From the IMG/VR virus record IMGVR_UViG_3300029705_000009: DNA of 64,000 bases; one strand, given 5' to 3'. The notes below the pieces were generated by a model that saw only the letters and a program-made list of their open reading frames with translations, did no database searches and was not told where the DNA came from. Position 1 is the stretch's first letter; every line of letters begins with the position of its first letter. The position numbers and the translations under genes were made by a program. Source of the DNA: a virus (lineage: Duplodnaviria; Caudoviricetes). This document shows, piece by piece, positions 34,195 through 37,500 of the stretch.

Positions 34195-34509
34195 TTAGAA
34201 ATCACTGCCACACTTATTACAATGCCACTGTTTTCCTACTTTTTTACTGGCTAAACCAAAGAGACCTGTGGATACAACTCTACTGGTTGTTGAAATTTTC
34301 TTTGTTTTGGTTGATTGGCAGTATGGACAAGTGATTGTTGGCCCGAACCTTTTCTCATAATCTTCTTGTCTTTTTTCTTCTTTGTATTGATTCCATTCTT
34401 CTGACTCTGTTAGTTGATATAATTTTTTACATTTTAAGCACATTGCAAATTTAGCATTAAATGCTTCGAACTCATCAAATTCTACACCGCCACATTTTTC
34501 ACAAATCAT
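34195..34509 (-). CDS. 104-aa double zinc-ribbon protein, intron cargo (antisense)
   Basis: MICEKCG...CLKC...TCPYCQST.TKKIS...GLFG.AS.K.GKQWHC.KCG; GGAGG RBS at 34516-34520. Confidence 0.8.
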   Translation of the reverse strand: MICEKCGGVEFDEFEAFNAKFAMCLKCKKLYQLTESEEWNQYKEEKRQEDYEKRFGPTITCPYCQSTKTKKISTTSRVVSTGLFGLASKKVGKQWHCNKCGSDF

Positions 34510-34543
34510 AATTATCCTCCACAGATAATATAAAAATAGTTTG

Positions 34544-37500
34544 ATATTTAAAAGTTTAATTAATGATATTGCTAGATACGACAGTATTATAGCAAAAATC
34601 ATCGTATCTGGCAACGAGATTGATAAAATTATAAATCTAACAAATGGTCTATCTGAAGCAGAATCAATATCTGTTATGACTAAGGCTGGTCTTAATGAGA
34701 AAACAATTGAGCATGTACAAGCAATGAAGTTAGATTCTTCTGCTAAAGCAAAAGACATAATTGCTACCAATGCACAAACCAATGCTCAGATTAGCAATAT
34801 GGGCGTTGTAAGTGTTCTAAAGTTTAAGTATCAGGAATTAGCCGCATCTATTGGATTAACAACTGCCGGTATGACAACGCTTTTGGGTGTTGCTGTCGGT
34901 CTTGCTGGTATGGCATTTGTTATGTATAAAACATCCGATGCAATAAAGGATGTAAAAGAAAAGGCAAAAGAACTAGGCGAAGCATTTAATAGTGACAAGT
35001 CTGATATCGAAGATTACAAATCTCAAATTGAAGATTTATACAAAACTATTAATGATAGTAATTCTTCTATAGAAGATATTACTACTGCACGTCAAACTCT
35101 TATGACTGTTCAGGACGAACTAATTGATAAGTTTGGCGCCGAAAAAGGCACCATCGATCTTATTACAAAAGCTATTGGTGGACAATCTGATGCATTAGAT
35201 ACTCTCATAGAAAAACAATGGTTAGCCACAAAAAATGAATTTAACAAAAGTGGTTTTTGGAACAATTTTGCCAACTGGCAAGAGGGCTATGATAACAACA
35301 TTGACCGTATGGTTGATGAAATGGAAAACGGTTGGGCAAATCTAGACTTATCAATGTCTGATTACCGTAGTGGTAAATATGATGACATGATCAAAAAATT
35401 AGAAGAGTCTGGATGGTCATATAGCTCCAGTTCTGAAACCTTTATTAAAGGCGGATTAGTTGAAAACCTTTATGAAGAACTTCTTGATATTCAGTCTATT
35501 GCTGGAGAAGATATGCCAGATAATTTCTTAAAGAGCTTAACTGATGATGCAAATAAGTTAAAAGACACTCTTGATGATTATGATGGTATATGGGACAACT
35601 ATATTCTTAATGACAAGATTTTCGCGGACAATAGAAAGTTTAATGGGAAAACCCTTGCAGACAGTTGGAAAGAAGTAAATGATGCTTACACCAATTATCA
35701 AGAAGCTGTAAAATCTGGTGATGCTAACGCTATTGAAGAAACCACTGCTGGTTTTGCACAGTCTATTAATACTGTATTAGACAATAAAAATGTGGATGAC
35801 AGTGTTAAGGATTATTTCAGAGACATGTATCCTGCTCTCTATAGGGAAGTTGAGAAGTGGGAATTTGAAGTACAACTAAAATCACGTATAATTACCGACG
35901 AAGAATCTTATTCTCAAATAGAAACAGCCAAAGAAAATCTTGAAAGCGAATATCAGAAAATTCAAGATTGGGGTCTTGGAGAGTATGAAGAGCAAATTAA
36001 AAATGGTACTGTGCAATCTGTGTTCGGAAATGTTGACATGGATAAGCGTACCATTATTGAATGGTCTGACGAACTCAAACAGACATATCAGGATGAACTT
36101 GCAAGTTGGGACTACAATCCTGAAGTTGGTGGCATAGATACTGTCTGGGGAGGATCGGATAGATTCGGGGAAGATTTGAATGGAGTCGGATGGCAAGTTG
36201 CATTTACTCCTATTCTTCCGGATGGTACATTCTTAAGTAAAGATGCTGTATATGACTATATCGACAATATTCTTATTGAGGCTTATGCAGATGATGGTCA
36301 GGTAACCGAAGAAGAATTAAAGTCTATAGACGCTCAAGGACGGCAAGTTGGTGATACGTTTATTCAAGGTATATTTGCTGGTGTAGATGATAGCCAAAAT
36401 TACGCAAACAATGGAAATTGGGCGGAGACCGTTGGAAGACTTATGCACTTCTCTGGTGATTATGGAGCAGTTAAAATTGCACAACAATCACTGATATCTC
36501 TTTTTGAAAAAGCGTTCGGAGTTGTTAAATTAGATAGTATTCTTGGCAAAACAAAAGAAGATATCATTGCAATTTTGCAAACAGATGGTTACCAAACTGG
36601 AGAAGGTCCCTTTAAATACATAGTTGACCAAGCTGTAAGCTTAGGTGTTATTAACGAAGCTAATGCTGAAGGAATCAATACCGTATTAGACTTGCTTGTA
36701 AAGTGGGGTATTTTGCAAGACACCATTACAGAAAAAGCATCGGATACCGCAGTTGTTTTTGATGATATTTTTGCTCTTGAAGGTTCTGATGGCGAGTTAA
36801 ACAATCTCGGCAAATTGAATGAACAGGTAGATAAACTTCAAACTGCATGGACTGGTCTTAAAGAAATGATGGATAATTATAATAAGACCGGTACTATTAC
36901 CGTTGACCAGTTCCAAGAGCTGTTATCTTATGGCGATGAATATTTGCAATATTTAACTGATGAAAATGGTAATCTTAAATTAAATGAAGATGCATTGAAG
37001 AGAGTCGCTGCTGCCAAGATTGAAAATATGAAAGCAGATATACTTCAAAAAATGCTTTCCAACCTTGAAAATATTACAAATGAAGCTACGGCACGAGATT
37101 TTCTTGCAGACAAGGTTAATAATGAAACACTTGCTATTGCCGAAAATACAGAAGCGTTAAAAGGAAATATTGCAGCCAAGTTAGCTGAATTAGCGGCAAC
37201 TGAAGGCATTACAGCTGCTACCATGACAAGTATTGAAAATTATGTGAACAATACCATGTCTGTCCTTGATAAACTTGGAGATTCAATTAGCATAGGTTCG
37301 TTTTACGGAAAAGACGCAGAAAAAGATATTAAGGATTCTATCGACTCCTACATGTCCTACATGGAAGCTTCTCTCGACGCAAGTAAGATTGATTACCAGA
37401 CTTATTCTCGTGAAGTAGCTGCTTTCCTAAAAGATATGTTTGATAAGGGTAAGATTTCTGCTGAGGATTATCATAATTACACCAAGCAGATGCTTGAGAA

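Follow-up and report, generated by a model that had tools for sequence, protein, structure and literature searches.

The window analysed here is a stretch of 64,000 nucleotides (nt) from a gut phage of the Caudoviricetes (IMG/VR record IMGVR_UViG_3300029705_000009) in which the gene for the tape-measure protein (TMP) is interrupted by a group-I-type intron. The plus-strand open reading frames (ORFs) 23281-32643, which has a PhageMin_Tail domain, and 34541-39343 are the two halves of this one gene. Near its 3' end the intron carries an insert of cargo genes, among them a small zinc-ribbon gene, P0001, that runs backwards on the minus strand. Opposite early codons of exon 2, and upstream of this gene, lies a sequence resembling a sigma-A promoter, which is the subject of this report. 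A preliminary description of this DNA had reported the site, with the cargo depending on it and exon and intron co-adapted, and had suggested that its transcript could block TMP splicing. Coordinates are collected in Table 1.

On the minus strand, the -35 hexamer TTGCCA (34614-34609) is followed by a 17-nt spacer ending in TGC and by the -10 hexamer TATAAT (34591-34586), so that TG (34594-34593) and C stand directly upstream of the -10 in the sequence TGCTATAAT. The hexamers are near TTGACA and TATAAT, the spacer is within 16-18 nt and the TGn element is present, in agreement with sigma-70/sigma-A promoters. With a score of 11/12 consensus positions plus the extended -10, the site ranks first among the 47 promoter-like sites of the 30-40 kb interval, and both its motif and its coordinates were re-derived as first described. 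It occupies exon-2 nt 43-71, or codons 15-24 (I I A K I I V S G N), and its predicted start lies 36 nt into the exon. The zinc-ribbon gene begins 77-105 nt downstream of the promoter (77 nt from the -10 to the ATG) with the translation signals GGAGGA-N5-ATG, the ATG being at 34509. No other strong site stands ahead of a minus-strand ORF equipped with both a consensus ribosome-binding site (RBS) and a terminator, and the odds of finding such a site within about 150 nt upstream of the zinc-ribbon gene on the correct strand are about 4e-4.

Conservation of the promoter-like site in relatives

At least eight further phage contigs encode a homologue of P0001 (40-60% identity) in backward orientation next to this TMP splice site (..AGUnnG|AUAUU..), at the loci L045, L046, L049/L050, L051, L052, L053, L054 and L055. 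The C-terminus TCPYCxSTxTKKIS...GKQWHCNxCxSDF is conserved, and the partner cargo differs among these loci, being a MazF/PemK-like gene, an HNH-like endonuclease, an aspartic-protease-like ORF or none. In six lineages (the window, L049/50, L051, L052, L053 and L055) the ATG is only 32-39 nt from the splice junction, and all six have TTG(C/T)(C/T)A-17-TGnTA(T/C)AAT at the same codons of exon 2, against a background of 0.48 such sites per kb on the antisense strand of these TMP genes. Relative to the ATG, the -35 lies at -98 to -105 and the -10 ends at -70 to -77; this conserved position bears out the proposal that the promoter is placed to drive the zinc-ribbon cargo. No such promoter site is present in the intron-less relatives L003-L006, which is the comparison of intron-containing with intron-less TMP homologues that the preliminary description had called for, and no antisense promoter is present at the homologous exon codons of L044, which has the intron without cargo. 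The weaker second site upstream (Table 1) is not conserved in the relatives compared. Near-identical contigs (L036-L041) have 99.98-100% identity and are hence uninformative, and positions 34544-34700 have zero variation among contigs from four DNA runs.

The pattern of conservation is that of a promoter. In the alignment of the six lineages (A2), TTG..A, TG, TA.AAT and the splice junction form the invariant columns; among consensus positions 11 of 14 are invariant, among spacer positions 2 of 15 (Fisher p = 6e-4). The corresponding codons of the TMP strand read ATT (A/G)TA (G/A)CA ... xxT xxC AAx, and the encoded residues differ (G/D/S, S/T/V, N/K) under fixed third bases, including the T and C of the -35 codons. 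Critical third positions are invariant in five of five cases, compared with 21 of 485 codon columns (4.3%) in the rest of exon 2, and the exon-2 proteins of the six lineages are only 15-45% identical. From codon usage, the odds of such a fit are 0.5-1% per lineage; GGC, for example, accounts for 13% of Gly codons and GAC for 20% of Asp codons. Judged from these alignments, comparative conservation removes chance as an explanation, and selection on the promoter at silent and semi-silent codon positions, with co-adaptation of exon and intron, appears well supported. The dependence of the cargo on an exon promoter, as first proposed, is upheld by the L044 comparison.

Two further lineages place the promoter elsewhere. 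In L054 and L045, whose ATG lies 64-105 nt from the junction, the promoter-like site is in the intron, as TTGAGT-17-TATAAT with TG in L054 and as TTAAAA-18-TATAAT in L045. Because it is intronic where the intron has room, the promoter follows the zinc-ribbon gene and not the exon. An interpretation as promoter turnover, which invoked a shift of about 20 nt relative to L049/L051 in an alignment on the NDI codons, was discarded, since in the six-way alignment its distance from both the ATG and the junction is unchanged, in whole codons.

The intron, its splice sites and its cargo

Placement of the promoter inside exon 2 requires the 3' splice site to be known, and this was re-derived from three kinds of evidence: the L044 copy of the intron, covariation and colinear intron-less TMPs. 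The IMG/VR relatives L003-L006 and many database TMPs are uninterrupted across the junction, where they read GxG|(I/F)(F/I); GEG|IFK in the window aligns with GAG FIT of intron-less TMPs, and the frame is open across the join. L044, found via an exon-2 protein homologue, has a cargo-less copy of the same intron of about 590 nt, with a core 86% identical to that of the window. The two are similar only from 22 nt ahead of 32565|32566 to about 15 nt past 34543|34544, where the similarity fades. In a four-way alignment of the window, L044, L051 and L054, compensatory changes occur in P1, P2, P3, P7 and P8, with 12 double-change pairs versus 4.2 +/- 1.6 in shuffles and at most 1 in slid controls. 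Three, two and three of the compensatory pairs fall in P3, P7 and P8, respectively, in support of the pseudoknot order P3..P7-P3'-P8-P7'. The U-G pair at the P1 splice site is invariant in these four loci and forms in L049 too, and L054 has two compensatory pairs in P1. Finally, the sixth pair of P10 covaries, being U-A in the window and L051 and C-G in L049 and L054. The 3' splice site is G34543|A34544 on these comparisons, which would put the promoter in exon-2 coding sequence, as the preliminary description had it.

The intron is called group-I-type only, because Rfam 15 gave no match at E <= 10 on 831 nt of the window, nor at E <= 0.1 for six relatives (seven loci in all), and because the pairings assigned are P1, P2, P3, P7, P8 and P10 and not P4-P6. 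The intron core was also used as a pattern to scan viral_contigs and metagenome_contigs, with no match. Searches of INPHARED phages by blastn and tblastn with the region, exon 2 and P0001 returned nothing or one unannotated 7.7-kb record, an IMG/VR search with the exon-2 protein returned none, and neither did a protein search with short exon-2 fragments. A metagenome contig of run X7 leaves the window sequence exactly at 34544. Upstream of this point it reads ...AATAATATTAATTCTCATCAAAACGAAGAA, with the open frame NNINSHQNEE|IFK, and may represent an intron-less or differently interrupted allele of a co-occurring phage; its junction pattern had only two chance matches in viral_contigs. The 24 residues at 34544-34612, which are extra relative to L003-L006, had been considered as possibly intronic. 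This was rejected in view of longer linkers in other intron-less TMPs, and it is also ruled out by P10, L044 and the X7 contig, which fix the junction at 34544.

Table 1. Features of the interrupted TMP gene and its backwards cargo gene (positions in the window)
Feature	Position	Strand	Basis or remark
Group-I-type intron, 1,978 nt, cargo near 3' end	32566..34543	+	Covariation, L044 copy, colinear intron-less TMPs
P1: exon-1 end CGAAGGU + guide GCCUUCG (32596-32602)	32559..32602	+	5' splice site after U32565, U-G wobble
Intron core: P2, P3 (32663-68/32925-30), P7 (32916-20/32958-62), P8 (32931-37/32944-50), J8/7 AAAAGUA	~32566-33160	+	Covariation
Cargo insert, in AAAAGATA^ATATAAAA of L044-type intron	33161..34523		Comparison with cargo-less L044
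DUF3990 gene	33324..33920	+	Within cargo insert
71-aa gene	33917..34132	+	Within cargo insert
Bidirectional terminator-like hairpin	34149..34174		Common to convergent cargo genes
Zinc-ribbon gene P0001, 104 aa, two CxxC...CxxC ribbons	34195..34509	-	ORF; homologues backwards beside same splice site
Predicted 5' untranslated region (UTR) of zinc-ribbon mRNA	34510..34579	-	Complementary to exon-2 nt 1-36, omega-G and last 34 intron nt
RBS GGAGGA	34515..34520	-	On plus strand, loop + stem of intron hairpin UUAUC-CUCCACA-GAUAA (34510-34526)
3' splice site: omega-G 34543, exon-2 AUAUUU 34544-34549	34543..34549	+	P10 with AAAUAU 32590-32595
Exon-2 hairpin, 13 bp, 20-nt loop	34569..34614	+	-35 in 3' arm, -10 in loop, predicted start in 5' arm
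Predicted transcription start, ~34579, G 7 nt after -10	34577..34580	-	From -10 position only
Extended -10, TG + C + TATAAT	34586..34594	-	Opposite codons ATT ATA GCA (I I A)
-35 hexamer TTGCCA	34609..34614	-	Opposite codons TCT GGC AAC (S G N)
Second weaker site TTCAGA-18-TATAAT, 10/12	34628..34657	-	43 nt upstream of main promoter

Compared with L044, the window has an insert of about 1.36 kb (about 33161-34523), which ends 20 nt from the intron 3' end and has its right edge 3 nt outside the zinc-ribbon RBS; the zinc-ribbon gene therefore arrived without a promoter. Just before the 3' splice site, the plus strand forms a hairpin with a (C/A)UCCACA loop whose complement is the zinc-ribbon RBS (GGAGG) in several lineages, and relatives of this terminal hairpin with a UCCACA loop occur in L045, L046, L049 and L051-L055. 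By this correspondence, one sequence appears to serve the ribozyme and, on the opposite strand, translation.

In searches of Pfam and PHROGs, the domains of the window cargo were DUF3990, one unknown and zinc ribbons only, and no LAGLIDADG, GIY-YIG, HNH or His-Cys domain was detected in the intron ORFs. The zinc-ribbon protein gave only weak zinc-ribbon matches in Pfam, belongs to an unknown family in PHROGs, had no match in PADLOC and nothing below E 0.1 in a profile search of the PDB; its AlphaFold model (predicted local distance difference test score of 72) matched generic zinc ribbons in Foldseek at E > 0.1, and in Atlas it falls only in hypothetical viral or Bacillota clusters. The DUF3990 protein gave a weak PARP-like match and matched the PADLOC candidate families PDC-M13B (1e-24) and PDC-M13A (1e-18). 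A role of the cargo in defence is accordingly a candidate one, its sole source being this DUF3990 match to the candidate systems PDC-M13A/B.

Other interruptions of TMP genes were observed. The intron of L046 (L046:1580-2620) contains an HNH-like homing-endonuclease ORF (DUF4379; PHROG HNH endonuclease) and a MazF/PemK-like gene in addition to the backwards zinc-ribbon gene. At other positions, gaps of 0.4-1.2 kb interrupt the tblastn matches to the TMP core in L014, L021, L022, L027, L029, L031, L033 and L035, which suggests further insertions, either introns or inteins, in TMP genes of related 150-kb phages. Outside the window, 14 nt at G000:C1:138733-138746 (about 69787 in window coordinates), AGTTTGATATTTAA, are identical to the 3' splice junction. 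Behind them runs an open TMP-like frame (IFNFKQMSAYGQ...), and 141781-142404 resembles a TMP at 25% identity. The site near 138733 is without a promoter and without a zinc-ribbon gene.

Function of the exon site and alternative explanations

We consider it likely (probability of about 0.8) that the site is a working sigma-A (sigma-70 type) extended -10 promoter in TMP exon 2 that transcribes the backwards zinc-ribbon gene. The DNA compared shows directly where the motif lies, that it is conserved and where the splice sites are. The zinc-ribbon ATG is 34 nt from the 3' splice site, and the terminal hairpin and omega-G occupy these 34 nt; with no room in the intron for a promoter, selection would therefore have kept it in the exon. 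Transcription is predicted to start about 36 nt into exon 2 and to cross the splice junction, with translation from the GGAGGA-N5-ATG signals and an end at the terminator (34174-34149). Host RNA polymerase could act on the promoter in the lysogen or early in infection. Expression of the zinc-ribbon gene in the lysogen is plausible because the genome record is that of a provirus with two tyrosine integrases. That the 5' UTR is complementary to the 3' splice site would most likely be a by-product of this packing, and any effect on TMP splicing, which is possible, would be secondary.

Several points weigh against this promoter reading. L046 has the zinc-ribbon gene and no clear promoter by the criterion used. 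The six lineages share ancestry and are not fully independent, with L051/L053 and the window/L055 forming pairs, and the peptide motif (N/D)(S/D)I(I/V)(A/T).. is moderately conserved, which accounts for some of the conserved nucleotides. What we infer from the DNA is that the promoter is active, where it starts transcription, when it is used and that the intron splices. Furthermore, a TG site of equal score (24679-24652, minus strand) lies inside the first TMP ORF with no gene behind it, and for this reason the motif alone is insufficient as proof of a promoter. That second site reads TTGACA-16-TATATT (11/12 with TG), has no minus-strand ORF of at least 100 aa behind it and is probably due to chance.

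If the exon-2 site, too, were a chance motif in AT-rich coding sequence, its likeness among lineages would reflect shared descent or co-conversion of exon flanks during homing. The 154-kb genome (34% GC) does contain 15 sites with at least 11/12 consensus positions versus 9.2 +/- 3.8 in simulated sequence, and five with TG versus 0.9 +/- 1.0, and the geneless site in the first TMP ORF is one such case; moreover, the similarity of the window to L044 continues beyond the intron, by 22 nt on its upstream side and about 15 nt on its downstream side, which indicates that exon flanks travel with it. Descent or co-conversion would, however, keep spacer and consensus alike, which the invariance of 11/14 versus 2/15 positions contradicts, while third positions elsewhere in the exon are saturated and the promoter bases have been kept while the encoded amino acids differ. 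A chance origin is therefore very improbable. Equally improbable is the explanation that the bases conserved here have their function in the plus strand or in the DNA itself and only resemble a promoter, as a homing or recombination site, an exon RNA element for the choice of 3' splice site, or an operator. Its attraction lies in the inverted repeat that the preliminary description had found bracketing the -10, TGCTAGATACGA (34570-81) and TCGTATCTGGCA (34602-13), which is present and 11/12 complementary. In plus-strand RNA the mismatch becomes G-U, as would suit an RNA element, and the result is a strong 13-bp hairpin (z-score -4.5, 0/200 shuffles) that has the -35 as its 3' arm. The basal stem AUUGCUA/UGGCAAU is common to the window and cargo-less L044 (L044:4983-5008) in a different codon phase, which would point to selection at the nucleotide level unrelated to the zinc-ribbon gene. 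Nevertheless, the repeat and its hairpin are absent in the other five promoter-bearing lineages (L049, L051, L052, L053 and L055), and what is conserved, TTG..A, a variable 17-nt spacer and TGnTAyAAT, contains no palindrome. Furthermore, presence of the element tracks the distance of the zinc-ribbon gene from the junction, and a distance of 43-71 nt separates the element from the insertion site, more than the usual span of homing sites. On this comparison, the inverted repeat does not belong to the conserved promoter; it resembles a plus-strand feature, in RNA or DNA, that goes with this intron subfamily.

The remaining alternative accepts the promoter and makes its transcript a regulator that blocks or redirects TMP splicing through P10, omega-G and the terminal helix, as a switch between defence and assembly. 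A start near 34579 would indeed give a 5' UTR perfectly complementary to 34510-34579, spanning the junction, so the complementarity to the P10 segment, omega-G and the last 34 intron nt that had been described holds by geometry if transcription starts there. This antisense 5' UTR has little structure of its own (z-score +0.75) and would be available for pairing; all six lineages have the overlap with the splice site. Group I splicing in vitro is inhibited by oligonucleotides directed at segments of the guide or the 3' splice site. Antisense interference was also raised by the authors of a study on antisense genes in nuclear group I introns, as a problem to be expected there (PMC9548176). Against a regulatory role stands the lack of the overlap in L054 and L045, whose promoter lies within the intron and whose transcripts would start 40-75 nt short of the junction; because these would not reach the splice site, its masking does not appear to be a conserved property of the module. 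In addition, the late TMP transcript is not expected in the lysogen, which would leave the antisense RNA no target, late head-on transcription of the 16-kb late gene should silence a weakly transcribed antisense promoter, and packing explains the exon position with no regulatory role. A regulatory transcript is thus unlikely. The more specific proposal that the antisense RNA masks the proximal 3' splice site at 34543, holding off or diverting TMP splicing, is distinctly unlikely. If it did so, splicing might be diverted to another AGUUUG|AUAUUU site, which lies some 35 kb downstream and just beyond the window, and the prophage state or early/late timing would decide whether a tape-measure protein is made, and which one.

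Significance and comparison with known systems

Mobile introns are usually regarded as self-contained and neutral to the host gene. Under the promoter reading, the passenger gene described here would rely on a promoter written in the codons of its host gene, such that the functional unit would not end with the intron, exon and intron would have to be passed on jointly and an essential structural gene would contain further information in the antisense direction. Synonymous recoding of five codons would offer a cheap handle on the role of a widespread backwards zinc-ribbon passenger of TMP introns, as well as on whether antisense transcription across the splice site affects group I splicing in vivo.

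The intron ORFs of phage T4, I-TevI and I-TevII, have dedicated promoters, and their expression does not proceed via translation of the host gene. Those are phage middle and late promoters that are intronic and in the sense direction, whereas the window has a host-type sigma-A promoter that is antisense and outside the intron. Prophage morons resemble the window in combining a host-type promoter, a small accessory gene and a terminator in a provirus context. In contrast to morons, the unit in the window is not self-contained, as its promoter lies in the frame of an essential structural gene and its gene body inside a ribozyme.

Antisense homing-endonuclease genes in the P9 region of nuclear group I introns are known from Didymium (Dsq.L2066/I-DsqI and Dir.S956-2/I-DirII; PMC9548176). 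Like the window, these introns have a gene on the strand opposite the ribozyme, an insertion in the P9 region and a promoter of the gene's own. They differ in residing in eukaryotic ribosomal DNA, in their RNA polymerase II promoters and endonuclease genes, and in that the promoter is internal or merely on the opposite strand (PMC9548176), while the window has a protein-coding phage host gene, a zinc-ribbon passenger that is not an endonuclease and a promoter in the codons of the flanking exon. Group I introns in TMP genes of Bacillus cereus group prophages (TMP-IVS1/2/3; PMC2504315) and in tail genes of Cluster J mycobacteriophages (PMC3706429) are also known. They share with the window an interrupted TMP, adaptation of introns to one site via P1/P10 and, in many cases, the lack of an endonuclease; they are recognisable as IA1/IA2 types, whereas the family in the window is missed by Rfam. 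PMC2504315 makes no use of the word antisense, and no exon-borne promoter is described in the passages of it consulted. Neither the Didymium introns (PMC9548176) nor, within those passages, the B. cereus group introns (PMC2504315) involve such a promoter, and the new element in the window is, by the comparisons made here, a predicted exon-embedded promoter that is conserved at synonymous sites.

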